64,000 nt of DNA from Patescibacteria group bacterium (GTDB taxonomy: Bacteria > Patescibacteriota > Patescibacteriia > CAIXNZ01). The notes beneath the pieces are model-generated. The model was given only the letters and a program-made list of their open reading frames with translations, was not told the origin of the DNA and did not search any database. The stretch spans positions 39,834-103,833 of the forward strand of contig JAQTMG010000003.1 in assembly GCA_028714455.1 (NCBI GenBank). Reading direction: 5' to 3'. Positions 5,030 to 56,878 of this stretch are shown in pieces; within the stretch, counting starts at the first letter, position 1, and every line of letters starts with the position of its first letter. The translations under genes and the position numbers were made by a program.

Positions 5030-5104
5030 CGCGGGGTAGAGCAGTGGCAGCTCGCCGGGCCCATAACCCGGAGGTCGCGGGTTCAAATCCCGCCCCCGCA
5101 ACCA
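5030..5104 (+). tRNA. Initiator tRNA-fMet (anticodon CAT)
   Basis: Cloverleaf with a C1:A72 mismatch, three G-C pairs in the anticodon stem, loop CCCATAA, T-arm GCGGG-TTCAAAT-CCCGC and an encoded CCA. It is near-identical in architecture to E. coli tRNA-fMet. Confidence 0.85.
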
Positions 5105-5307
5105 GATTCATGGTGGGGGTTTCCGCCGTAGGCGGACCCGCCTCTGGCGGGCAAATCCCGCCCCCGCAACCAGATTCATGGTGGGGGTTTCCGCCGTAGG
5201 CGGACCCGCCTCTGGCGGGCAAATCCCGCCCCCGCAACCAGATTCCTGGTGGGGGTTTCCGCCGTAGGCGGACCCGCCTCTGGCGGGCAAATCCCGCCCC
5301 CGCAACA
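5105..5307 (+). repeat. Three tandem 68-nt direct repeats, each ending in the last 20 nt of tRNA-fMet (AAATCCCGCCCCCGCAACCA)
   Basis: Units at 5105-5172, 5173-5240 and 5241-5307. The third has an A>C change and lacks the CCA. Each unit is GATTCATGGTGGGGGTTTCCGCCGTAGGCGGACCCGCCTCTGGCGGGC plus the tRNA 3' end. Confidence 0.9.
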
Positions 5308-5327
5308 ATGAAAATTAAAATTATTTA

Positions 5328-5400
5328 GATCCGGTAGCTCAGTTGGTAGAGCACCTGCCTTTTAAGCAGGGGGTCCTGGGTTCAATCCCCAGCCGGATCA
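5328..5400 (+). tRNA. tRNA-Lys (anticodon TTT)
   Basis: GATCCGG acceptor, GCTC/GAGC D-stem, anticodon loop CTTTTAA, T-arm CTGGG-TTCAATC-CCCAG; no CCA encoded. Confidence 0.9.
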
Positions 5401-5606
5401 TAGGTTAATGGCTTGCCAAGACTGGCAAGCTTTTTGCGACCCCCTGCTTTATCAAAGCTACACAAAGAAGTCCTGCCTGCCCGCCGTAACGAAGTGAAGG
5501 CGGGGGTTCAATCCCCAGCCGGATCATAGGTTAATAGCTTGCCAAGACTGGCAAGCTTTTTGCGACCCCCTGCTTTATCAAAGCTACACAAAGAAGTCCT
5601 GCCTGC
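5401..5606 (+). repeat. Duplicated ~100-nt segment (tRNA-Lys 3' half + 80-nt downstream unit containing a terminator hairpin)
   Basis: The 80-nt unit TAGGTTAAT(G/A)GCTTGCCAAGACTGGCAAGCTTTTTGCGACCCCCTGCTTTATCAAAGCTACACAAAGAAGTCCTGCCTGCC appears at 5401-5480 and 5527-5606. Between the two copies a second copy of the tRNA 3' end (GGGGTTCAATCCCCAGCCGGATCA, 5503-5526) is preceded by a CCCGCC..GGCGGG hairpin. Confidence 0.85.
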
Positions 5607-5637
5607 CTCTAGCGAAGGCAGACCGGATTATTATAAG

Positions 5638-11191: not shown

Positions 11192-11322
11192 GGCGAAAAC
11201 GGACATTATCGTCGTTGTAGAGACGGGGCATACCCTGTCTCTACGTCATGTATCATATGACGATAATGTAGAGACGCGGTGCACCGCGTCTCTACGGCGT
11301 TTTACGCCGTCCGTTTTCGCCC
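11192..11322. repeat. Structured palindromic repeat (REP/MITE-like), copy 1, double-core
   Basis: Outer 13-bp inverted repeat GGCGAAAACGGAC..GTCCGTTTTCGCC enclosing two 28-bp palindromes: GTAGAGACGGGGCATACCCTGTCTCTAC (11217-11244) and GTAGAGACGCGGTGCACCGCGTCTCTAC (11268-11295). Confidence 0.85.
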
Positions 11323-11405
11323 AAATAACTTTTATAAAAGAAAAACCCCGCACCTTTTGCTAGCAAAAGGTGAGGGGCAAAGTGTACAAGGTACAAGAAT
11401 CAAAG

Positions 11406-11966
11406 TTACGAAACTACGGAACGAGCGCGCAGAATGTCACCGGCACTGCCAGGGTCGCAGCAGCCGATGTACAATCCGCCACCGCCCCATCCCACGCCCG
11501 GCACACCACCATCGGAATCGCAGGAGCCAGAACAGAGTGTCACGTTGTTGATATCAAGATGCTTTCCTGCCGGCCGGTTCCAGTTATAGAAGAGCTCCAT
11601 GACAAGGCGCTCTTCCAGGGTGATGCCGTTGATGCCGCGTTTCTCGCACTCTTTGGCAGAGAGGTTCTTGTTTTCCTTGTCTGCCTCAATTCGGTCTCGC
11701 AGCCAGATGGCATAGGTCTTGTCGGTCTTGCGTACCGAAATAACGGTGTTAAGGTCATCTCTGTACTTCCATGACGTGAAGTGCTCTTTGCACTTATCAA
11801 AGAGACGGTTTGCGGTCAGGCCTGCGGCCATGATGAGTAGCCAGTTGAAGCCCTTCCGCTTTCCGGGCAGAACGATCTTTGAGAAGTCGGCCTTGATGCC
11901 GAAAACTTCTTTGTAGAAACGCTGCCATTCGGCGATCAACTTACTATATTTCCCCTTTTCCGGCAT
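11406..11966 (-). CDS. Hypothetical protein with Gly/Cys-rich C-terminus, in a GC-rich region (likely horizontally acquired)
   Basis: GGAGGG RBS before ATG 11966. Local GC content is far above neighbours. The C-terminus reads CSGSCDSDGGVPGVGWGGGGLYIGCCDPGS. A terminator hairpin GCACCTTTTGC-TAG-CAAAAGGTG lies at 11346-11375. Confidence 0.5.
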   Translation of the reverse strand: MPEKGKYSKLIAEWQRFYKEVFGIKADFSKIVLPGKRKGFNWLLIMAAGLTANRLFDKCKEHFTSWKYRDDLNTVISVRKTDKTYAIWLRDRIEADKENKNLSAKECEKRGINGITLEERLVMELFYNWNRPAGKHLDINNVTLCSGSCDSDGGVPGVGWGGGGLYIGCCDPGSAGDILRARSVVS

Positions 11967-12118: not shown

Positions 12119-13216
12119 CTACTTCCTCGCCACTTCCGAGATCAAATCCACATATTTTTTCGCCGCGTCTTTATCAATCATGGTCAGGATATTGCGATTC
12201 AAGGTCTGGCGCTCGGCCGGATTTTTCATTAACAAACCTATAGCCACAAAAAATGTTTCCTTATTCAAATCATTTTGTGACAAAATTTTGACCGCGTTAT
12301 ATTTGGCAAAGTATTGAGCGTTAGCTTCTTGATGGCCGGGTAATGGGATTAAAATTGTTGGCTTACCCAAAACCGAAAGTTCAGTGAGCGTTGAAAAACC
12401 GGAACGCGAAATAACCAAATCGGCCATGACTAAAGCATCAAAAATCTCTTTATTCAAAAATTCATAGGAACGATAACGCGCCTCAATCAATTTCATTGAT
12501 TCGCGATTATAAAAATTTTCAAATTGATCAGAAATTCCCTTGCCCTTACCGGTTATATGAATCACCTGATAATTTTCAACTAGTTTGCCAACTGTCTCCA
12601 AAACATTTTCATTTATAATTTGGGCGCCGGTGCCGCCGCCCATAATCAAAATGGTTGGAATGGCCAGATCTAGTTTAAAAAATTGCGCCGCTCTTTCTTT
12701 ACTGCCGCTAAAAACTTCAAGGCGCACCGGGTTGCCTATCTTATATGTTTTTTTGGAATCAAAATTTTTAATCAAATCATCAAAAGTAGTCGTAATTACG
12801 GTGGCTTTTTTCGCCATCAATCTATTGGCTAAACCAACTTCCAGATCCTGCTGATGCACAAAACGCGGCATACCCAATAACCAGGCCGCGTAAATGACTG
12901 GTACGGCCACAAAACTGCCGGCCGTTAAAACAGCATCTGGTTTAAATTTTTTTAAAATGAGGAGACTCTGGAGAAAAGCGGCCAAGACAAAAAAGGGTGT
13001 AAATAAATTAGCTAAAGAAAAATATTGGCGCCACTTGCCCGCGATTATCGGTTTAAAAGGAATCTGATAAGCGCCTAAAAAATCTTTTTCCGGCCCGTTT
13101 TTTGTGCCCAGCCACAAAACCTCGAGATTCGCGTCTCGATTTTTTAATTCTTCAAAAATTGCAACCAGCGGTGAAACGCTTCCCATCGTACCACCTCCCG
13201 CGAATAAAACTTTCAT
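12119..13216 (-). CDS. murG: UDP-GlcNAc:MurNAc-pentapeptide-PP-undecaprenol GlcNAc transferase MurG
   Basis: MKVLFAGGGTMGSVSPLVAI N-terminal Gly-rich motif and GT28 architecture, in dcw context. Confidence 0.85.
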   Translation of the reverse strand: MKVLFAGGGTMGSVSPLVAIFEELKNRDANLEVLWLGTKNGPEKDFLGAYQIPFKPIIAGKWRQYFSLANLFTPFFVLAAFLQSLLILKKFKPDAVLTAGSFVAVPVIYAAWLLGMPRFVHQQDLEVGLANRLMAKKATVITTTFDDLIKNFDSKKTYKIGNPVRLEVFSGSKERAAQFFKLDLAIPTILIMGGGTGAQIINENVLETVGKLVENYQVIHITGKGKGISDQFENFYNRESMKLIEARYRSYEFLNKEIFDALVMADLVISRSGFSTLTELSVLGKPTILIPLPGHQEANAQYFAKYNAVKILSQNDLNKETFFVAIGLLMKNPAERQTLNRNILTMIDKDAAKKYVDLISEVARK

Positions 13217-13243: not shown

Positions 13244-14359
13244 TTATTCCCTTGTTTGTCTAGAAATATTGATCACAATCCCGCAGGCTGCCATTAAAAC
13301 CACCAGGGCGGTTCCGCCATAGCTGACAAAAGGCAGGGGCACGCCGGTTAAGGGCAGTAAGCCAACCATAGCGCCAATATTAACAAAGGTTTGGATTATA
13401 ATCCAGCTAATCACGCCCACCGTGAACATCTTGGCAAATTTATCCGGCGAACTTTCGGCGATCTTAAACCCGCGATAAGCCAGATACACGTAGGCAAAAA
13501 TTAACAAACTCGAAACTATCCAGCCCATTTCTTCGGCAATGATGGCAAAAATCGAATCGCCTTCAACTTCAGGCAGATATTGAAATTTCTGTCTCGACAT
13601 GCCAAAGCCTCGACCCCAAAACCCGCCGGAGCCGATGGCCAAAAAGGCCTGGTTGATGTGATAACCGATTCCCTGCGGATCCAATTCCGGATGCAAAAAA
13701 ACCGTCAGTCTGGCGGCGCGATAAGGCGCGATCTTGGCCAGACCGATGATGGACAGAAGCGCCGCCGTAATCAAACCGAGAACGTGCAAGATATTGGCCC
13801 CGCCGGCAAAATAAACGGCCAGAGAAAAAGCCACGATAATCGTCATCGTGCCCAGGTCAGGCTGTAAAAATAAAAGTATGGCGATAAGGCCGAGTATTAT
13901 TAAAAACGGAATCAGGCCTTCAGACACATGGCTAACCTTTTTTTCCTCGCGATTTTCCAGCCAGGCCGCCAGATAAATTAGAAAGGTCAGCTTGGCCAAC
14001 TCCGAAGGCTGAAAAGAAAGGCCGAAAATATTTATCCAACTGTTGGCCGTGCCATAATTGGCGCCCACGTGCGGTAAAAAAACCGCCACCAGCAAAACGA
14101 TCGTCAGCACCAGAAGATAAAAAGCGATCTTGCGCCAAAATCTGTAATCGATTATTGAAAAAAGAATGAGAAAAAAAAGTCCGGGCAAAAAACCGTTGAC
14201 CAGCTGATGTTTTAAATAATAATAGTTGTCTTGAAATTTATTAAATGAAATTGCCACGCTAGCCGAAGAAAGCATGATTAAACCAAAGGCCACGATCGCC
14301 GCCAGCGTGATGATAAATTTATAATCGGGTTTATGATAGGATCTGCCGAAAATTTTCAT
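13244..14359 (-). CDS. ftsW: SEDS-family cell division protein FtsW/RodA
   Basis: 371-aa polytopic membrane protein with FtsW/RodA hallmarks, between murD and murG. Confidence 0.85.
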   Translation of the reverse strand: MKIFGRSYHKPDYKFIITLAAIVAFGLIMLSSASVAISFNKFQDNYYYLKHQLVNGFLPGLFFLILFSIIDYRFWRKIAFYLLVLTIVLLVAVFLPHVGANYGTANSWINIFGLSFQPSELAKLTFLIYLAAWLENREEKKVSHVSEGLIPFLIILGLIAILLFLQPDLGTMTIIVAFSLAVYFAGGANILHVLGLITAALLSIIGLAKIAPYRAARLTVFLHPELDPQGIGYHINQAFLAIGSGGFWGRGFGMSRQKFQYLPEVEGDSIFAIIAEEMGWIVSSLLIFAYVYLAYRGFKIAESSPDKFAKMFTVGVISWIIIQTFVNIGAMVGLLPLTGVPLPFVSYGGTALVVLMAACGIVINISRQTRE

Positions 14360-15741
14360 TTGAATTTTTTTACTTCTTTATTAAATTGGTCTCCCCGATC
14401 AAACTCATTAATAAATAGGCCGAAACTAGCCGCGCCAGGAGACAATAAAAATATATCACCGCGTTCCAGCATCTGCTTTGCCTCGTAAAACGCCTCGCTC
14501 ATACTGTCAGCCAAAATTATCTCATTATCAAATTTTGCCCGGCGTAATTCTCTGATTAATTTTTCCGTGGCCGTGCCATTAAATAAAATCAAGTGTTTTG
14601 TTTTTTTCTTAATAACTCTGGCCGCTTCTTTAAAATCAAGCTTCTTGTCAGTGCCGCCAGCCAGCAAAACTACTTTTTTATCAAATGAATTTAGCGCGGC
14701 AACCAGGGCATCAGGCGCAGTGGCTGTCGTGTCGTTGTAAAATTTGACGCCATTTTTAATCGCTACCAATTCAAGGCGACCGCTTAGCCCTTTATATTTT
14801 TTAATTGCCTGTCTAATTATGCTAATCGGCACTTTCATGGCCAGGCTCAAGGTTATGGCCGCTAAAATATTTTCTTCATTATGCTGGCCGATTAATCTGA
14901 CATTTTTTAATTTAATCACGCTAATTATCTTATTGCCTTCCTTAAATTTAAACCAACCGTTCTTGATAAATCCCCCATTTTCTTTTTCACCCAAATTTTT
15001 TCTGGTATACCAAAAAACCCTGGCCTTTGATTTTTTGGCCATGACTCGAGTGTACTCATTATCTCTGTTAAAAACGGCTATGTCATTTCTGCTTTGAAAT
15101 TTCGTAATCAGCGCTTTGGCGCTGGCATAATGAGTCATGCCATCATAAGTATTAAGGTGGTCGCGCAAAACATTGGTCACTAAGGCAAAACGCGGACTGA
15201 TTTTTTTTCGGCCAAGACCTTCCAATTGCCAGGAAGAAAGCTCCAAAACAACTGGCGTGTCTTTTTTAATCTTTGGCAATGATTCCAACGGCGAAATTCT
15301 GATATTGCCGCCAAGCACCGCGTCCTTTTTATATAATTTCATAATCTCGTAGACCAAACCGGTTGTCGTACTCTTCCCCTTAGTACCGGTGATGCCGATG
15401 ATATTTTTCGAAGGGCAGAGTTTAAAAAATAAAGTTAAATCGGTTTCAATCGGAATATGATTGGTTTGGGCAATTCTTAAAAATTCAGAATCGCGGGGTA
15501 CGCCTGGATTTTGAATTATCATGGCCGCCTCTTTAAAATCATTTTTATCATGTCTGCCTAAAACATATTTTATTTTAAATTTCTTCAGTTCTTTGAGGGT
15601 GGACATTAGTTGTTTTCGACTTTTCAAATCAGTGATCGTTAATCTCGCACCTTGCCTGGCTAAAAACTTGGCCACGCCCAAACCGCCTCCGTGCAAACCG
15701 AGACCCATGATGGTTATTTTTTTGTTTTTGAATTCCAGCAT
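14356..15741 (-). CDS. murD: UDP-N-acetylmuramoylalanine--D-glutamate ligase MurD
   Basis: KKITIMGLGLHGGG Rossmann N-terminus and Mur ligase P-loop GITGTKGKSTTT; overlaps ftsW by 4 nt. Confidence 0.85.
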   Translation of the reverse strand: MLEFKNKKITIMGLGLHGGGLGVAKFLARQGARLTITDLKSRKQLMSTLKELKKFKIKYVLGRHDKNDFKEAAMIIQNPGVPRDSEFLRIAQTNHIPIETDLTLFFKLCPSKNIIGITGTKGKSTTTGLVYEIMKLYKKDAVLGGNIRISPLESLPKIKKDTPVVLELSSWQLEGLGRKKISPRFALVTNVLRDHLNTYDGMTHYASAKALITKFQSRNDIAVFNRDNEYTRVMAKKSKARVFWYTRKNLGEKENGGFIKNGWFKFKEGNKIISVIKLKNVRLIGQHNEENILAAITLSLAMKVPISIIRQAIKKYKGLSGRLELVAIKNGVKFYNDTTATAPDALVAALNSFDKKVVLLAGGTDKKLDFKEAARVIKKKTKHLILFNGTATEKLIRELRRAKFDNEIILADSMSEAFYEAKQMLERGDIFLLSPGAASFGLFINEFDRGDQFNKEVKKFK

Positions 15742-15849
15742 ATAAAAATTATATCAATTTATTCGGTTTTTTTCAATAATTTGGCGATAAGACAAAATTA
15801 TTTCATAATAAAATATTCCGTTAAAAATTAAAGCGCAAACCGCGTTTAA

Positions 15850-15990
15850 TGTTCACCGGGGTTTGGGGGCGCAACTAACCTACGTTAGCCGTAGCTAACT
15901 TCGGTTAGCGAAGGCTAAGCGTCTATTTGCATTTGCGACCCCAAAAGTTTTTGGTACTTTTTGCTTACAAAAAGTACGAAAATAATTATT
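15850..15990. ncRNA. Candidate structured small RNA / leader element (unknown class)
   Basis: An outer stem GGGGGCGCAA..TTGCGACCCC encloses nested hairpins GTTAGC-CGTA-GCTAAC and CTTCG-GTTAG-CGAAG. It is followed by the palindromic hairpin GTACTTTTTG-CTTA-CAAAAAGTAC, in a 297-nt gap between murD and the next gene. Confidence 0.25.
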
Positions 15991-16038
15991 TCAATTAAAA
16001 AATCCCTCAAGGCGAGAGATTTTAAATGTTATAAAAAA

Positions 16039-16848
16039 TTAAAATTTCACCGGAATACTCACCATATTTTCTTCAACGCCAGATGCGCTTAAATCGTAAA
16101 TCTCAACAAAACCTTCTTTGGTCGTAGAAAACTCATAATTTATTTTACGAAAAAAACTTCCATAACCATCAGTTCCCAGCTCGGAAAGCGACGCTTGTTC
16201 AGAAATCAAAACTTTGTTACTGGTATTTTTAACGCGGATAAAAACTTTATCGCTGGAAATTTTAGCCGTGCCTGAAACGGTAAAGGGCGAACTTAATTGC
16301 TCATCTGCTTTTGGCGAATTAACGATAATGGCGCCGGAATTTTCAGGCACGCTGGTCGTATTTTTGCTGCATTTTATCAATTGTAAAAGTTGACTATCGC
16401 AGCTGTTATACCAGCCTTCTTTGGTAGTGCCGATGTATTTACAGACTTTGAGGCATTGGCCCTGCTTACATTCTTTTCTAAACAAGGCCCACTCATCGCA
16501 AATACTTTTATCGGAAAAAACGCAGATGCCAAATTGACCGCTATCGTTGGTGTACATTTCAATTTTAGCACCGGCCACCACGCATTCGTCAGAAGCCGGA
16601 TTGGCTATCTGTAAATTTAAATTTGTATTTAATTTTGGCGCCACGGTCGGAGTCGTGTCATTAAGATGGCCGCACCAAGCCGGCGTATAATTCTTGCCCT
16701 GAATACTATTAATCTCATTACAAATTGGCGAAAAAATATCTTTAATAATTTTATAATTCAAAAAATTAACAAAAAAATAAGTCCCCAGGAAAAGGATAAA
16801 TACAATGTTTAAAATGATAGAGAATTTGTTGATGGATCTTTTGTGCAT
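16039..16848 (-). CDS. Hypothetical Cys-rich secreted/membrane-anchored protein
   Basis: N-terminal TM anchor, 13 Cys in the mature part and a C-terminal beta-rich domain. Confidence 0.45.
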   Translation of the reverse strand: MHKRSINKFSIILNIVFILFLGTYFFVNFLNYKIIKDIFSPICNEINSIQGKNYTPAWCGHLNDTTPTVAPKLNTNLNLQIANPASDECVVAGAKIEMYTNDSGQFGICVFSDKSICDEWALFRKECKQGQCLKVCKYIGTTKEGWYNSCDSQLLQLIKCSKNTTSVPENSGAIIVNSPKADEQLSSPFTVSGTAKISSDKVFIRVKNTSNKVLISEQASLSELGTDGYGSFFRKINYEFSTTKEGFVEIYDLSASGVEENMVSIPVKF

Positions 16849-16891
16849 AAAAAATAGTTAATTACTTAATAAGTATACCATTTTTCAAAAG

Positions 16892-16924
16892 AAAAACCCA
16901 CCGCTATTCACGGTGGGTTTTAAA
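16892..16924. terminator. Rho-independent terminator
   Basis: AACCCACCG-CTATTCA-CGGTGGGTT hairpin flanked by A/T runs. Confidence 0.6.
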
Positions 16925-16925
16925 A

Positions 16926-17366
16926 TCAACGCCGGAACGAAAGAGAAATACGCGACCAAATTCCTGTGTGATATTTAAAGGGCGTATTGAAAAAGAACAG
17001 CTCCCCCTCTCCTTGATTGGAAGATGAATCGTAACTGCCGAGATAAAAGATATATGAATACGGGCCCAGGGCTACTTTTGTTCCCTCAAAAATATCACCC
17101 AAGATATAGAGAACAACGAGATCATGATTTACGATACTTCTGTCTTCGGCTCTGGAAATGTGCATCATGGAGTTCGAGATACAATGAATCTCGGCAATGG
17201 CAGAAATAACTTTGCCTGATTTAAATTTTAAGGAAAACGATTGAGCTACCCGATGGGCAAAGGCAGAATACAAATTGTTATGATCCGGACCGCTGGTAAT
17301 TTGTACCTTGCACAATCGAAAGCCATTGACCTCCCTTTGGTGGTTTACCAGATCTTTTCGTTTCAT
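16926..17366 (-). CDS. Hypothetical protein (moderately GC-rich, C-terminal aromatic-rich end)
   Basis: AGGAGG RBS before ATG 17366 (MKRKDLVNHQ..). The ORF track's longer form to 17444 lacks an RBS. Confidence 0.4.
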   Translation of the reverse strand: MKRKDLVNHQREVNGFRLCKVQITSGPDHNNLYSAFAHRVAQSFSLKFKSGKVISAIAEIHCISNSMMHISRAEDRSIVNHDLVVLYILGDIFEGTKVALGPYSYIFYLGSYDSSSNQGEGELFFFNTPFKYHTGIWSRISLSFRR

Positions 17367-17506
17367 GTCTTCCTCCTTGCGCCAAACACGGGCTTTTGCG
17401 CGTGTTTGGGGCGTCTTGAAATGAACATTTACTTTGTCTGTCAAAGTAATCCGCCACCTTGGTCGGATAGTTCAAGTTAACAAAAAAATGGTGTTTTTGT
17501 CAATAG

Positions 17507-17590
17507 GGGCGAAAACGCTTTAACGAAAGTAGAGACGCGGTGCACCGCGTCTCTACAATATAAAATAATTTTTTATAAGCGTTTTCGCCC
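17507..17590. repeat. Structured palindromic repeat, copy 2
   Basis: GGGGCGAAAACGC..GCGTTTTCGCCC outer IR around core GTAGAGACGCGGTGCACCGCGTCTCTAC (17529-17556). Confidence 0.85.
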
Positions 17591-17604
17591 AGCCTCAACA
17601 AATT

Positions 17605-18651
17605 CTAATATATCTTATCCAGCAAAGTTAAAATAATACCAAACACGGCCGTGACCATGCCAATGAGCCAGAACCTCATAACCACTTTGCATTCTGGCCA
17701 GCCAATTGCCTCCAGGTGATGATGAATCGGCGCTGACAAAAAAACTTTTCTCTTAAAAATTTTCTTGGAGCACATCTGAATAATAACGGAAAGTGATTCA
17801 ATGACAAAAGGCAAGCAAATTATAGGCAAGATAAGCGCTGAATTTGTGAGCATGGCAATCACGCCCAGAGTCACGCCCAGCCCCATCGAACCAGTGTCTC
17901 CCATAAAAAAACGAGCTGGCGGAATATTGAACCATAAAAAAGCCAAAAGCGCGCCGACAACCACGCCGCAAAAAGTCGCCAAATCAAATCTGCCTTGAAC
18001 AAAAGCAATCACGCCAAAAGTCGCGAAAGCCGCGGCCAGTAAGCCGCCGGCCAGACCATCCAGGCCGTCAGTCTCGTTGACGGAAAAGGACGTGGCTACG
18101 ATGACAATCATAAAAATTGGGATGTACCACCAGCCGACTTGAAAATCGCCGATAAAAGGTATTCTCATCAGGTCCCAATCAAGTTTGAAAAAAAACCAGA
18201 AAGCGCCGATTAGGGCAATCGCCGAATAAATCAAAAGTTTGTATCTCAATTGCAGTCCGCCGCCTTTTGGTCCCACCCCCCTGACATTTAAAATGTCGTC
18301 AAAAAGTCCCACCAGTGCTGAAGCAACCAAAGCTCCAAGCGGCAAAAATGTCTGCGAGCGAGTCAAAAAATTAAATTTATCAAAAATCGGAATATCCGTG
18401 AATCTCGCCAGATAAAAAGCGCCCAATGATAGTACCAGGACCGTCGCCCAGACCAAAATTCCTCCCATGGTCGGCGTACCGGCCTTGTGCGCGTGCAGGT
18501 TGGACATAATGGGCGCACTCTCGCCGTCACGAATATTTTTCCCCAATTTGTATTTGTACAAAAAATTAGTCAAAAGCGGAGTCCAGACCATGGCCAGCAC
18601 AAACGAAAGAGTCGTGAAGAGAAAAATTTTGATGATGACTAGCGTGTCCAT
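17605..18651 (-). CDS. mraY: Phospho-N-acetylmuramoyl-pentapeptide transferase MraY
   Basis: 348 aa, polytopic, with MraY conserved blocks (KAGTPTMGG, NETDGLDGLA, GDTGSMGLG). Confidence 0.9.
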   Translation of the reverse strand: MDTLVIIKIFLFTTLSFVLAMVWTPLLTNFLYKYKLGKNIRDGESAPIMSNLHAHKAGTPTMGGILVWATVLVLSLGAFYLARFTDIPIFDKFNFLTRSQTFLPLGALVASALVGLFDDILNVRGVGPKGGGLQLRYKLLIYSAIALIGAFWFFFKLDWDLMRIPFIGDFQVGWWYIPIFMIVIVATSFSVNETDGLDGLAGGLLAAAFATFGVIAFVQGRFDLATFCGVVVGALLAFLWFNIPPARFFMGDTGSMGLGVTLGVIAMLTNSALILPIICLPFVIESLSVIIQMCSKKIFKRKVFLSAPIHHHLEAIGWPECKVVMRFWLIGMVTAVFGIILTLLDKIY

Positions 18652-43912: not shown

Positions 43913-43999
43913 GGGGCGAAAACGCTTTCACGTAAAAAACGCTGCCGTAGAGACAGGGTATACCCTGTCTCTACTTTTTATTCAAGGCGTTTTCGCCCC
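43913..43999. repeat. Structured palindromic repeat, copy 3
   Basis: GGGGCGAAAACGC..GCGTTTTCGCCCC outer IR around core GTAGAGACAGGGTATACCCTGTCTCTAC (43947-43974). Confidence 0.85.
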
Positions 44000-44030: not shown

Positions 44031-45256
44031 TTAATATTTCCCAATATTTTTTACGTAAGTTCCTGCTTCGCCCGAATAACGAATCAAAAAAACGTCATAA
44101 AGAACCGCGTCTACCTCTTGCCACAAATTCTCGGCCGTTTCTCTAATAATGAAACACTGCATGCCGCTTAGCTTAAGATACAACGGCCAAATTTTTGTCT
44201 CAAAATCATCCTTTTGTTCAAGCGCTTTTTTTAGGTTAAAAATGGTCAGGCGCAAACGCAACTTAAACTTCCGAGTATTGCGCACCTGGCCATCAACCAC
44301 ATTCAGTCCTAACGTGTGCAGAATATGCCCTCGTCTGGCAAAATATGATTTATGCAAATAGTAGCGCTGATAATAGGCTCCTTTATTTTGCCACCAACCA
44401 TCTGGGTCAGGCGCCTCTTTCAGTTCATAACCCCTTTTAGCGATACGAAAAACCGCTGAAATAACGGGCGCATGCCACACAATGCAACCGCGATATTTCT
44501 CAATATCTTCCTGACCCGCTGGTTTCACAAAGTAATCGTCAGCGGAGGGATCATCTGGCCGTTCTTCGCCGCGCTCAATGTGTCTTTTTTTTGTTTCCGG
44601 CCAAAATTCTGGCGCTGTGATAAAAATGTTGTCCGCGTAACGTACGTAAGTACCCCTGATGTTCTTGGCTAGCTCGGAAAGCTCGTAATCAAAGGGTTCA
44701 AAACAAAAATCAAACAAGCGCGGGCTGGTTGGCGCGCCTTGTGGCAAACCAAAAGCCGGTAGCCCCTTTTTCTTTTGATTAAACCAGGTCGTCAAACAGG
44801 TCAAATAATAAGAGGCGTAATAACCGTACTTTTTTGACTTGAAAAAATTGAAGACCGCGCGACCGCTTGTCGAAGGAAAAGCATCCTTCACGTCAGTCGT
44901 AAAAACCGCCTGGTCTGCCTTAGCAATAGCCAATGCCGCCTCTTTGACTCCACCGCCAGAAAATCCATAGACATTTCTATGACGGTCCAGCGGCTCAAGA
45001 ATATTTTTGTTGACAGCCCGCTGAATTGTCATCAAATCAGGGTGCGGAATCTGTAAAATTCTTCTGCCGCCGCTTCTTTTAGCAATTGTAATGGTTGAAT
45101 AAAGCCATGGACTCCTGACAATTGCCGCCCACAAAATTCTACGGAATTTTTCGAAATCATTAAAAGGATAATTCAGTTCAGCGAACAAATACCAGGCTGC
45201 TTTTCTGCCTGATTCCCTTAATAAGGGATTTTTAATGCGCTCACGCGATTTCAACA
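44031..45256 (-). CDS. Stand-alone reverse transcriptase (retron/DRT-like; motif C = YADN)
   Basis: RT motifs in order: 1/2 RRILQIPHPDLMTIQRAV, A FTTDVKDAF, B' GLPQGAPTSPRLFD, C YVRYADNIF. The proposed start is TTG 45256, 8 nt after AGGAGG; the ORF track's ATG 45383 would add 42 aa lacking an RBS. GC content is elevated. No maturase, endonuclease or other fused domain was recognised. Confidence 0.75.
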
Positions 45257-45294
45257 ATATTATCACCTCCTTTCCATGTTTTTTGTTTTCAAAG

Positions 45295-45695
45295 AAAAGG
45301 GAGGGGTAAATTCCCCTCCCACCGCTGGTTACTCGCGAATCGCAAGCTGTGCGTGTACCGATCAAGAACCGGGTGATTTGCATATTGCCGTCAGAATTCT
45401 GACAGCCCCTTTCGGCTATTTTAGGATCTCTTAGGGTTCCGGCAATAAAGCTAACTGTCTTGATCTAATTTCGGATTTTAGGGTTAGGGAGGGGTGCAAG
45501 ATTTATACATTTACTTCAAGTTTTGGTTATCCCCTCTCCTTCTAATTAAACCGAATTACCGAGCCAGTTACCTTCGCCGAAAATTATCTAGAGAAGGATA
45601 CGCAGTTTATGTACCTAACTCAAGTTTCGGCTAATCCTTCTCTTTATCCTATTTGGCCTCAAAGCTCGCTAACCAGCGAATGATAATACTTTAGT
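45295..45695 (-). ncRNA. Candidate RT-associated structured ncRNA (about 380 nt) directly upstream of and co-oriented with the RT
   Basis: Minus-strand promoter-like TTGACT-17 nt-TAAAGT at 45716-45688. Two paralogous long hairpins have conserved loops (AAACTTGA..GTA.ATAAA) and different, individually complementary stems (GAGAAGGAT/ATCCTTCTC versus GGAGAGGGG/CCCCTCC). There is a 14-bp palindrome GTCAGAATTCTGAC. The 3' end is a GC-rich hairpin GGGAGGGG-AATTTA-CCCCTCCC followed by TTTTCTTTG just before the RT RBS. Confidence 0.4.
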
Positions 45696-54575: not shown

Positions 54576-56273
54576 CTACGTGTGCGGCACAATTACAATC
54601 TTATCCTCGCTAATCGAAGTCGCGTTCGCCGTTGCTGTCAGCGGACTGAAATCTCCCACTAACGCGATGTCCGCGCCAACATTATAGTTCACGAAAAACG
54701 CGTCGGCCACGTCTTGGACTAAAGTGGCCCAATTATCGCCATAAAGAGCTTTGGCCAGCGCTTCGGTTTTTATCCAGCGCAAAGTACCGTGGGCATCAAC
54801 CGCGTACACTTTCGGATCAGTTGTGATTTTTATCAATTTTACACCCGGCTTATACGTCACATTGCCGCCGATGGAGATGGCCGCGAGTTGCGCGTCGGTA
54901 ATCGTCTTGACTGTTGAAAAATCCGGATACCAGGTCAAATACGTATTGAGCGTGGGAAAAACATAGCGCTTGCCGTCAGTGGCATAATAATAAACAGCCG
55001 GACCCGATGCCTTAATCAAATCGCCGTAAGAAATATTGGCCCCGACCAGTCCGGGCGCGTTAATCGTAATTGAGAGAGTGCCGATAACCTGATTATCCAC
55101 TTTAACTGATACTGTCTTAACGCCCAAAGAGGTGGATCTTGCTTCAAAAATTATTTTGCCGTTCACGTCTGAATTATTATTAGGAATAGTGATGATAACT
55201 CCCGAACTGGCGTCGACCACGATTTGTTTATTGGGAAGTGGCTGCCCCATGGAATCCTTAATGGTCACGGTAATGGTTGATTTATCTAAGCCATCATTGG
55301 CCAAAACGATTTTATCGGCCGCGACCGAGGAATTGGAGACCGAGAATGTCTGCGCGTGCGCGCTGACTGTAATCGAGCCTGTCTGCGTAAAATTTCCCCA
55401 GCCATCATGGGCCTGCAAACTGATGGTGTGCGTGCCGTCGCTGATGTTTTCCCAGTCGTAACGCCAGGTGTAAAAATTAACATCCATTTCCTGCACTGGA
55501 TATTCCTGACCGTCAATAAAGATATTGAAATCGCGGATATAACTGCCGCCCTCGTCTCTGGCCATGCCCTGGATCATTAAGCTGTTGGTGTTTAAAATCT
55601 GGCCGTCAAATAAATTGGTAATAACCAGTTTGGGTCCGAACATATCAATGGAATAGGTGCTGACTACCTGGCTGTTCGCGTTTGTCACATTGTCATCGGT
55701 CGGTCCGTTATTTTTGGCAGCCGTGAAAACGCCGAAATCGCCCACGTCAAAAAGGCCATTGGCATTATTGTCCGTAAGAATCGGAATCTGCATCAAAATC
55801 GTGGCCGTACTCGTGTAGTCGGAGAATGTTTCTACGGAGACAAAAAATCTTTTGCCAATGCTTGCGCTTTCATTCAAATTTTGAATATACCAAGATTCAT
55901 AAGTCGTGGTGTAATTAAAATTGCCGATTACCCGGTCAACACCCATGCCTTGAAATCCGGCTGGCCCGTCATCGGCCCAGAGCGTCATGTATTTTATATG
56001 GCTTAAATAATTGGCCGTGCCCAGATTTTTCAAGCCGAGAGCGTTAAGCGTGTCTGTGCCGCTGATATTAAGCGTGAAATCCATAATCAGGCCGTCAAAA
56101 GTCGCTCGATAAAAAGTCGCGTAAGGCGCCTGCAGGTTAATAACTGAACTGGTGGTAAAGGCCAGAGATGGCTGCGCGCCCAAAATCGTCAGCGCCAAAA
56201 TCGCGATGATGATAAAAATTTTTCTTCCGCCAAAGGCAGACCCGCCTCTGACGGGCATAATGTTTTTTTGCAT
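54576..56273 (-). CDS. Membrane-anchored surface protein with Ig-like (Big) domains and C-terminal shared ~115-aa domain
   Basis: N-terminal TM/signal, Big-like beta-sandwich repeats and a C-terminal block AVYYYATDGKRYVFP..DPKVYAV..LRWIKTE. Confidence 0.5.
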   Translation of the reverse strand: MQKNIMPVRGGSAFGGRKIFIIIAILALTILGAQPSLAFTTSSVINLQAPYATFYRATFDGLIMDFTLNISGTDTLNALGLKNLGTANYLSHIKYMTLWADDGPAGFQGMGVDRVIGNFNYTTTYESWYIQNLNESASIGKRFFVSVETFSDYTSTATILMQIPILTDNNANGLFDVGDFGVFTAAKNNGPTDDNVTNANSQVVSTYSIDMFGPKLVITNLFDGQILNTNSLMIQGMARDEGGSYIRDFNIFIDGQEYPVQEMDVNFYTWRYDWENISDGTHTISLQAHDGWGNFTQTGSITVSAHAQTFSVSNSSVAADKIVLANDGLDKSTITVTIKDSMGQPLPNKQIVVDASSGVIITIPNNNSDVNGKIIFEARSTSLGVKTVSVKVDNQVIGTLSITINAPGLVGANISYGDLIKASGPAVYYYATDGKRYVFPTLNTYLTWYPDFSTVKTITDAQLAAISIGGNVTYKPGVKLIKITTDPKVYAVDAHGTLRWIKTEALAKALYGDNWATLVQDVADAFFVNYNVGADIALVGDFSPLTATANATSISEDKIVIVPHT

Positions 56274-56299: not shown

Positions 56300-56878
56300 T
56301 TAATTTAAAATGTTAAATTCAACCGCCTCTTTGGGATTATCACGATCAAATTCCCAATTTACCGGATTATTGGCAATATATCCTTTTATCCGCGCGTAAT
56401 CTTCATCGTTTTTGATAATGTGTTCGTAATAATTATCTTGCCATTTGAAATCAAGGTTATTTTCATGGCATTTGCGCGTAACGGCACCTTTAAATGTATT
56501 AACGACAGACGATAATGATTTTGGTTTGACGTGGCCAAATTTATTCCGTGTAGAGACAGGGTATACCCTGTCTCTACAATTTTTTGCAAAATCATTTTCG
56601 TCGCATTCAATTTCAATTATCCCATGAACATGATTTGGCATGATTATCCAATCGTCCAATCTTATATTATTAAAATGCTTTGGTATCTCCAACCAACAAT
56701 CAAAAACGACTTTCCCAACCTCCGATAAATAAACATTATTATCCTTAATTTCACCCAAATCGTATATTCTGTCTTTGGTGCAAATTGTCACGAAATAAAA
56801 ACCTCCTTTGGCATAATCCCATTCCATCAAACGCATACTCGCCACGCGATATTTATTTTTAAAATATTCGTCCCCCAT
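56300..56878 (-). CDS. IS200/IS605-family Y1 transposase-like protein (RAYT-like) carrying a copy of the GTAGAGAC palindromic repeat in-frame
   Basis: HuH motif MPNHVHGII and C-terminal WQDNYYEHIIKNDEDYARIKGYIANNP (RAYT-like). The core GTAGAGACAGGGTATACCCTGTCTCTAC lies at 56549-56576 inside the ORF, translated RDRVYPVSTR. Confidence 0.6.
   Translation of the reverse strand: MGDEYFKNKYRVASMRLMEWDYAKGGFYFVTICTKDRIYDLGEIKDNNVYLSEVGKVVFDCWLEIPKHFNNIRLDDWIIMPNHVHGIIEIECDENDFAKNCRDRVYPVSTRNKFGHVKPKSLSSVVNTFKGAVTRKCHENNLDFKWQDNYYEHIIKNDEDYARIKGYIANNPVNWEFDRDNPKEAVEFNILN
56549..56576. repeat. Structured palindromic repeat core, copy 4 (intragenic)
   Basis: Identical to the core of copy 3; no outer GGGGCGAAAACG inverted repeat. 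Confidence 0.85.

Follow-up and report, generated by a model that had tools for sequence, protein, structure and literature searches.

The Spacer between mraY and murD in a Patescibacteria Group Bacterium: Gene Content, Conservation, and Probable Origin

Gene Order at the mraY-murD Junction

A stretch of 64,000 nucleotides (nt) from a Patescibacteria group bacterium, referred to in its entirety as the window, contains genes of the cluster for division and the cell wall (dcw) in which mraY and murD are set apart by a gene-bearing spacer. The minus strand carries mraY (17605..18651; 348 amino acids; Pfam Glycos_transf_4 at 1e-32 plus MraY_sig1), murD (14356..15741; 461 amino acids; Pfam MurD-like_N, Mur_ligase_M, and Mur_ligase_C), ftsW (13244..14359), and murG (12119..13216). 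All four genes are supported by Pfam matches, are co-oriented, and follow the canonical dcw order. The spacer between mraY and murD comprises 1,863 bp (15742..17604) with two genes, three terminator-like hairpins, and three predicted promoters. Along the direction of transcription, it is composed of a palindrome resembling repetitive extragenic palindromes (REPs), a promoter, a leader, the gene orfX, a terminator, a −10 element, a DUF333/Gmad2 gene, a further terminator, an AT-rich spacer with a palindrome, and the murD promoter. An initial annotation of this DNA correctly reported the separation of mraY and murD and attributed it to the insertion of a repeat family with its cargo. Comparison with related genomes makes it probable instead that the spacer represents the normal cell wall block architecture of one Patescibacteria clade (Buchananbacteria/Falkowbacteria-like) and that it is layered in origin rather than one repeat-borne insertion.

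On the 5′ side of mraY, the window shows a gene for a 128-residue membrane protein (tm128) and an iscS-nifU-iscU set; murE and murF are not found there. The MraY protein of the window is 75 to 84% identical to MraY of related Patescibacteria. Its best match in a scan of genome collections is a metagenome-assembled genome of Candidatus Buchananbacteria with 75% identity, and the window is placed among the Patescibacteria. A look-up of the exact MraY sequence returned no record. The comparison covers 111 fetched loci (designated L; protein records are designated P), which together with the window amount to 112 sequences and 1.2 Mb. The related set of about 25 contigs was obtained from a metagenome scan with a clade-specific protein of 128 residues and from look-ups of individual proteins.

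Conserved Genes between mraY and murD

Only 10 to 120 bp separate mraY and murD in Firmicutes and in several loci of the candidate phyla radiation (CPR) (L002, L005, L007, L013, L046, L057, and L059), in agreement with the earlier statement that the two genes are usually contiguous. Since they adjoin each other in these loci, the interruption represents a derived state in comparison with other bacteria and CPR lineages. Further CPR lineages contain at the same junction a gene for a 521-residue protein of the amidohydrolase family or a gene for an Asp/Glu racemase (murI-like) (L014, L016, L023, L029, L035, and L019), and an interruption at this site is therefore common in the radiation. The clade of the window shares the gene order Rrf2-iscU-nifU-iscS-tm128-mraY-[slot]-DUF333/Gmad2-DUF350-murD-ftsW-murG, and a miaB-like gene in convergent orientation follows murG. 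A uniform gene order with conserved intervening genes was the outcome that the initial annotation had itself named as speaking against an insertion, and it is largely what the relatives show: in 16 of 16 distinct related contigs covering the site, mraY and murD are separated by the DUF333/Gmad2 gene, and the MraY proteins of these contigs are 67 to 84% identical. The literature searched holds no description of DUF333/Gmad2 fixed in the mraY-murD junction. Homologues of orfX are found in nine distinct related contigs, seven of which are free of any REP copy, and orfX directly follows mraY in all eight contigs that show its neighbors.

The DUF333/Gmad2 gene (16039..16848, minus strand) encodes a membrane-anchored, extracytoplasmic protein of 269 amino acids, for which the earlier description as a Cys-rich secreted protein is a fair one. 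The protein is built from an N-terminal hydrophobic membrane helix, DUF333, a Cys-rich linker, and an Ig-like Gmad2 domain. Both domains pass the Pfam gathering thresholds, DUF333 (PF03891; 6e-14) with 52.4 bits against 25 and Gmad2 (PF10648; 4e-10) with 40.2 bits against 25.7. Homologues of the protein form 39 clusters, of which 36 have both domains, and every name given by the sources is that of a Patescibacteria group. All 10 cysteines are invariant across 14 orthologues, and five disulfides are likely; the orthologue in L001 lacks the DUF333 part. GMAD2 has been described in fusions with GERMN and LysM, pointing to peptidoglycan (PMC2732212). We infer that the DUF333/Gmad2 protein and the DUF350 protein encoded next to it in relatives act in the cell envelope. 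From the sequence, an extended −10 element (TGgTATACT; 16872..16880, minus strand) is predicted upstream of the DUF333/Gmad2 gene, with matching elements (TGCTATAAT / TGCTATCAT) at the same position in L082, L083, L110, and L111. The fold of the downstream gap, together with its sequence, places an intrinsic terminator with a 10-bp stem and a U run at 15999..16023 on the minus strand.

Every relative with sufficient sequence on this side has a gene for DUF350, a small membrane protein, after the Gmad2 gene; the closest relative, L110 (Gmad2 70% identical), is among them. The corresponding position of the window is occupied by a noncoding gap of 297 nt, in which neither a DUF350 gene nor a pseudogene remnant was detected. 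The loss of the DUF350 gene in favor of this 297-nt spacer is the sole window-specific change. In place of the gene lies a unique nested GC-rich palindrome of 83 nt (15863..15945; GGGGTCGCAA ... TTGCGCCCCC, with inner TTAGC and CGAAG hairpins). The gap as a whole reaches a fold z score of −5.1 against shuffled sequences because of the terminator, an AT hairpin, and the nested palindrome. The z score of the palindrome is −4.6 for the minus and −4.0 for the plus strand, with folding energies of −36.0 and −36.7 kcal/mol on the two strands; since both strands fold equally well, it constitutes a DNA palindrome and not a strand-specific RNA. No other copy occurs in the window or the fetched loci, and Rfam gives no match to it. 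The earlier view of this gap as a structured, RNA-like element is thus borne out for the structure but not for the RNA-like character. A tRNA/tmRNA scan detected nothing in the spacer region, and Rfam 15 yields only two tRNAs at gathering score in the whole window. Within 15600..17700, all Rfam matches with E values of up to 5 score at most 25 bits against cut-offs of 45 to 195, which is chance level.

A Variable Slot Downstream of mraY

The gene adjoining mraY, orfX (16926..17366, minus strand), encodes a cytoplasmic protein of 146 amino acids, a divergent member of a tiny clade-restricted family, and is preceded by the ribosome-binding site AAGGAGG at 17372-17378. Its description as GC-rich and foreign-looking has to be abandoned, as its GC content of 0.417 and its GC content at third codon positions (GC3) of 0.435 are ordinary for the window (0.404 ± 0.052 and 0.44 ± 0.079, respectively, for 58 long open reading frames [ORFs]); mraY has a higher GC content of 0.46. 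A word-indexed protein database returns only the self match of orfX. Exhaustive HMMER searching of 1.84 billion representatives leads to a single real relative, P0002, with 32% identity; a match of 33 residues to P0003, a repetitive protein of 1,019 amino acids, was treated as spurious. The contig of P0002, L082, shows the order tm128-mraY-orf243-P0002-DUF333/Gmad2, and further members were found by inspecting the mraY|Gmad2 gaps of other relatives. A profile search gives 9 clusters among 5.8 billion proteins. Complete members comprise 108 to 153 amino acids with the ORF kept open and share the motifs GPNxWxL(I/V)I..L and YF.A.Y...R.G. No match was obtained for orfX in Pfam, NCBIfam, PADLOC, PHROGs, or PDB sequences or by tblastn against phage genomes, and a fold search with the model of a family member revealed no credible structural neighbor.

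The sequence of orfX changes considerably faster than those of its neighbors. Identity within the family is 16 to 32% where the MraY proteins are 82 to 87% identical. Between the window and L082, identity amounts to 84% for MraY, 80% for tm128, 62% for Gmad2, and 31% for orfX; between L082 and L083, it amounts to 87% for MraY and 25% for orfX. The ratio of nonsynonymous to synonymous substitution rates (dN/dS) ranges from 0.17 to 0.56 in the orfX family and stays below 1 in every pair, compared to 0.04 to 0.07 for mraY. AlphaFold2 predicts a small α+β domain for the family member P0004 (predicted local distance difference test score [pLDDT] of 76; predicted template modeling score [pTM] of 0.71); the model of the window's own protein is unusable (pLDDT of 53). 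Because of the dN/dS values and the model of the family member, orfX is, by these computed measures, a coding gene, evidently under purifying selection and diverging far faster than its neighbors.

The site between mraY and the Gmad2 gene differs from one genome to the next. It is empty in L001, L085, L089, L097, L107, and L110 and contains orfX alone in the window, L083, L091, L095, and L100; orfX together with DUF3841 in L087, L096/L102, and L105; orf243 together with orfX in L082; orf236 alone in L111; and sets that include TrmB in L098, L108, and L109. About half of the relatives hold orfX in this slot. The DUF3841 cassette, located on the opposite strand, is 90.6% identical between L105 (2378..3278) and L096 (6500..7387), compared to 74% for the mraY genes, and this identity indicates a recent exchange between the two genomes. 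For orfX, the synonymous divergence (dS) between L091 and L105 is 0.39, compared to 1.44 for the adjacent mraY. Both discrepancies show recombination between related genomes. The genes orf243 and orf236 (L082, 1630..2361; L111, 399..1109) constitute a second orphan family without a family match that alternates with orfX in the slot. In L111, the predicted promoter behind the REP copy would drive orf236.

Downstream of orfX, a terminator-pattern match defines an intrinsic terminator with a 12-bp stem and a U run (16893..16921, minus strand), as had been noted initially. The same hairpin, with a compensatory change from C-G to T-A, is present just 5′ of the Gmad2 promoter in L082 (twice), L083, L107, L110, and L111. 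Within the sub-clade of the window, this conserved hairpin (CCCACYGTGAATARCRGTGGG) always precedes the Gmad2 promoter directly, and its duplication around the cassettes of L082 could plausibly provide a substrate on which cassettes are deleted. The slot at the mraY|Gmad2 junction varies and recombines, so that the idea of gene flux inside the dcw cluster was partly right.

A different emphasis would treat the junction after mraY mainly as an integration or recombination hotspot, with orfX as a mobile accessory cassette of the defense, symbiosis, or immunity type that is not kept vertically and whose divergence results from diversifying selection and allele replacement. This explanation, which overlaps with the layered clade architecture favored here, is rather unlikely, although it deserves serious consideration. 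It accounts for the patchy presence and absence of orfX and for cassettes that vary by genome (orf236/243, DUF3841, TrmB with NTP_transferase, and AAA_33/acetyltransferase). The near identity of the DUF3841 segments agrees with it, as do the incongruence between orfX and MraY similarities, including the low orfX dS between L091 and L105, and the duplicated hairpin of L082, which could drive deletions. However, orfX is never found away from mraY where its context is visible and does not occur in phage records or plasmid-like contexts, and PADLOC and PHROGs return no match for it. Selection against amino acid changes in every orfX pair (dN/dS below 1) likewise disagrees with this explanation. 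The allele of the window itself bears no sign of recent import, its leader being about as diverged from that of L082 as the 3′ end of mraY (79% versus 77%).

The REP-Like Repeat and Its Putative Transposase

The REP-like nested palindrome (17506..17591, assigned to neither strand) starts 14 nt past the mraY stop codon and fits a terminator-like pattern. An outer inverted repeat, GGGGCGAAAACGC, at 17506-17518 and 17579-17591 encloses an inner GTAG...CTAC palindrome of 28 nt (GTAGAGACGCGGTGCACCGCGTCTCTAC) at 17529-17556. The inner palindrome (GTAGAGAC-N12-GTCTCTAC) occurs in five copies in the window, compared to zero expected from shuffled sequences; four of them are located between genes, and the remaining one falls within the ORF of a gene resembling REP-associated tyrosine transposases (RAYTs). 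With its size of 28 nt and its multiple, mostly extragenic copies, it has the properties of a REP (a palindrome of 20 to 40 nt in multiple, mostly extragenic copies), and the REP-like copy reported for the spacer is confirmed. A composite repeat with two inner palindromes (11192..11323) lies beside the GC-rich orf186, and a third composite member (43913..43999) lies between convergent genes; a gene for a 450-residue reverse transcriptase (44031..45383; Pfam RVT_1, 6e-12) adjoins the latter. The composite downstream of mraY folds with −46.2 and −48.0 kcal/mol on the two strands and, since it folds equally well on both, represents a DNA palindrome rather than a strand-specific RNA structure. Classification as a miniature inverted-repeat transposable element with target-site duplication was rejected, as none of the three copies shows a duplication. 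For HUH-type elements, no target duplication is expected.

Among the 112 sequences, the palindrome is found outside the window only in L083 (3626-3709) and L111, in each case right after the mraY stop codon, and ordinary terminators occupy this position in L001 and L082. In the window, L083, and L111, the REP is followed by the promoter TATTGACAAAAA, behind which lies orfX in the first two and orf236 in the third. Since seven relatives carry orfX without a REP and the REP is restricted to these three genomes, the repeat is younger than the slot genes. Most likely, it would serve as a terminator or 3′ mRNA stabilizer of mraY. REPs in general lie downstream of ORFs, are likely transcribed, and act in termination or mRNA stability (PMC3733652).

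The RAYT-like gene (56300..56878, minus strand) encodes a putative tyrosine (HUH) transposase with a Pfam Y1_Tnp match of 25.7 bits (cut-off of 23) and reaches 63 bits with NCBIfam REP_Tyr_transpos, below the cut-off of 80 bits. A bare palindrome inside its ORF (56550-56577) encodes CRDRVYPVST, a stretch flanked by the HUH motif and the C-terminal part, and the usual REP flanks are missing. Within the 64 kb of genome covered, this gene is the likely partner of the repeat family. A second repeat family (5084..5607) consists of a 68-nt GC-rich unit in three tandem copies starting from the 3′ end of tRNA-Met and a 104-nt repeat with 126-nt spacing after tRNA-Lys; a related 33-mer adjoins the RAYT-like gene at 56225..56257.

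Beside the double REP composite, orf186 (11406..11966) shows the most atypical composition in the window (GC of 0.535; GC3 of 0.668) and has its own terminator. It is located between the convergent murG and miaB-like genes, where the relatives L087, L095, L102, and L107 have only 37 to 61 bp. No match to orf186 was found in any library, in phage genomes by tblastn, or in IMG/VR. The segment 11192..11966 has the appearance of a true insertion that is specific to the lineage and adjoins a REP.

The initial proposal that the REP family or a RAYT carried orfX and the Cys-rich gene into an intact mraY-murD operon is very unlikely. It finds some backing in the REP composite at the mraY end of the segment, in the presence of a RAYT-like gene in the window, in the double REP that accompanies the foreign-composition orf186, which is absent from relatives, and in the different genes that follow REP and promoter in the window and L083 compared to L111. 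Nevertheless, both spacer genes occupy the same site in relatives without the REP and have native GC and GC3 values. The single REP copy lies on one side, with no second boundary, and REP/RAYT elements are not known as movers of kilobase cargo. No target-site duplication, integrase, or transposase flanks the spacer segment, and Pfam detects no recombinase inside it. The segment therefore lacks the features of mobile-element cargo or a genomic island: its composition is native, its one REP lies on one side, duplication and recombinase are missing, and its genes are present in relatives. What stands of the proposed insertion is the REP copy itself, a secondary insertion in the window, L083, and L111, along with gene flux after mraY; that the repeat carried the genes is not supported.

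Promoter and Leader of orfX

A σ70-type promoter is predicted for orfX from the sequence (17474..17503, minus strand), with TTGACA at 17498-17503 and TAACTT at 17474-17479 in the arrangement TTGACA-N18-TAACTT. Every member of the orfX family is preceded by TTGACA-17/18-TAAnTT. The 5′ leader of about 100 nt (17367..17469, minus strand) contains the hairpins H1 (17449-17468), H2 (17430-17448), and H3 (17383-17408), followed by the ribosome-binding site given above. Over the 122 nt upstream of orfX, the window and L082 are 79% identical, compared to 77% at the 3′ end of mraY, and the coding DNA of orfX cannot be aligned. Adjacent H1 and H2 hairpins are predicted in 12 of 12 leaders, a few bases past the promoter. 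When 11 leaders are aligned, pairing occurs in 84% of the cells, compared to 31 to 53% with slid partners, and six pairs have changed on both sides. The third, GC-rich hairpin just before the ribosome-binding site occurs in the window, L082, L083, and L090 as well as in L105, with an identical leader. A covariance model of the leaders matches only these leaders in 368 kb; Rfam gives no match, and no other copy was found. The conserved block 5′ of the orfX start codon was rejected as an N-terminal extension (NCBI annotates a 172-residue product with a TTG start), as the frame of H1 differs in the window and conservation is at the nucleotide level. The leader may function as a 5′-terminal stabilizer or as an operator, a protein operator and a DNA operator being equally possible.

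The notion that the 146-residue ORF is no real gene and that the conserved part is a leader or small RNA after mraY would fit the contrast between 79% nucleotide identity in the leader and 31% amino acid identity in orfX, the poor model of the window's protein, and the absence of a known family, but it is hardly credible in view of ORFs of 108 to 153 residues that are open in every complete member and share motifs, a strong ribosome-binding site at the right distance, dN/dS values of 0.17 to 0.56, a family-member model with a pLDDT of 76, and the lack of an Rfam match.

Predicted Transcription of murD

The predicted murD promoter (15748..15776, minus strand) consists of TTGAAA, 17 nt, and TGaTATAAT, with 11 of 12 consensus matches plus the TG extension. 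Its −10 element ends 6 nt before the ATG codon, and a leaderless, independently transcribed murD mRNA is therefore predicted. TGnTATAAT is also found 6 to 8 nt before the murD start codon in L001, L091, L095, L097, L100, L107, and L111, which suggests that a leaderless murD mRNA may be conserved in the clade. Because a promoter and a terminator are predicted for each gene and the leaderless-type promoter of murD is conserved, mraY and murD are predicted not to be cotranscribed.

Origin of the Spacer

The layered architecture favored here would combine components of different ages. An old, fixed layer would consist of the gene for the membrane-anchored, disulfide-rich DUF333/Gmad2 protein, usually followed by DUF350, between mraY and murD. 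To this would belong an old but variable layer, the slot between mraY and Gmad2, which holds from none to three or more accessory genes, with orfX in about half of the relatives, and whose cassettes would be lost and exchanged through recombination between related genomes. The most recent layer would comprise the REP, which in the sub-clade formed by the window, L083, and L111 inserted directly behind the mraY stop codon, and, in the window alone, the replacement of the DUF350 gene by the 297-nt spacer with another palindrome.

Several points weigh against this account. Sampling is uneven, since the relatives are metagenome contigs and often short. orfX could be ancestral with losses or could have been gained repeatedly by exchange, and the mosaic signals show that exchange occurs. 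The REP and the turnover of the slot might conceivably be loosely linked, because three genomes share the REP and the promoter behind it but carry different genes downstream. Furthermore, the promoters, terminators, leaderless initiation, and lack of cotranscription are all predictions from sequence.

An interrupted textbook operon beside a repeat copy tempts toward a reading as a mobile insertion, while the relatives reveal an inherited, lineage-specific layout. Directly behind an essential gene lies a permissive slot in which cassettes are gained, lost, and exchanged, and the DUF333/Gmad2 and DUF350 proteins are candidates for the poorly known cell wall machinery of Patescibacteria. orfX represents a tiny orphan family with a conserved structured leader that adjoins mraY wherever its neighbors are visible. 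It is doubtful, though conceivable, that orfX and its two-hairpin leader form an undescribed clade-restricted module tied to MraY or lipid I synthesis, with the linkage to mraY being functional and not accidental. If so, orfX might modulate or protect MraY as a rapidly evolving cytoplasmic protein whose leader possibly mediates autoregulation, and orfX, DUF333/Gmad2, and DUF350 would be lineage-specific cell wall or division components of these ultra-small bacteria. The general understanding of the dcw cluster is unchanged.

Comparison with Known Systems

The locus resembles the dcw cluster (mraZ ... mraY-murD-ftsW-murG ... ftsZ) in the common orientation and canonical order of its four genes. 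It differs in the two to three extra genes that split mraY and murD, which are not directly adjacent, in the isc operon and small membrane protein gene that take the place of murE/murF 5′ of mraY, and in the predicted promoter and terminator of each gene.

The repeat is similar to the GTAG REP/RAYT systems (PMC3733652 and PMC3116915), with which it shares a short, GC-rich palindrome of 28 nt that starts with GTAG, the presence of several copies mostly 3′ of genes or between convergent genes, a terminator-like shape, the lack of target duplication, and a RAYT-like gene in the genome. In REPs of the GTAG super-family, one end of the hairpin bears GTAG as an unpaired tag (PMC3733652), whereas GTAG is paired here with a terminal CTAC. 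The palindrome is additionally nested in the outer inverted repeat, the RAYT-like gene scores below the NCBIfam cut-off and has the palindrome inside its ORF instead of flanking REPs, and the copy number is low, with 5 copies in 64 kb.

Compared to other GMAD2/DUF333 envelope proteins, the protein of this clade combines DUF333, a Cys-rich linker, and Gmad2 on a signal anchor and, across its 39 clusters, is restricted to Patescibacteria. Stem-loops at the 5′ end stabilize mRNAs such as those with the ompA leader of Escherichia coli and the aprE and ermC leaders of Bacillus. The orfX leader is comparable in its two stable hairpins a few nucleotides from the predicted start, which are kept by compensatory changes; in its case, the 5′ end is a predicted one, and the motif is confined to one tiny gene family.

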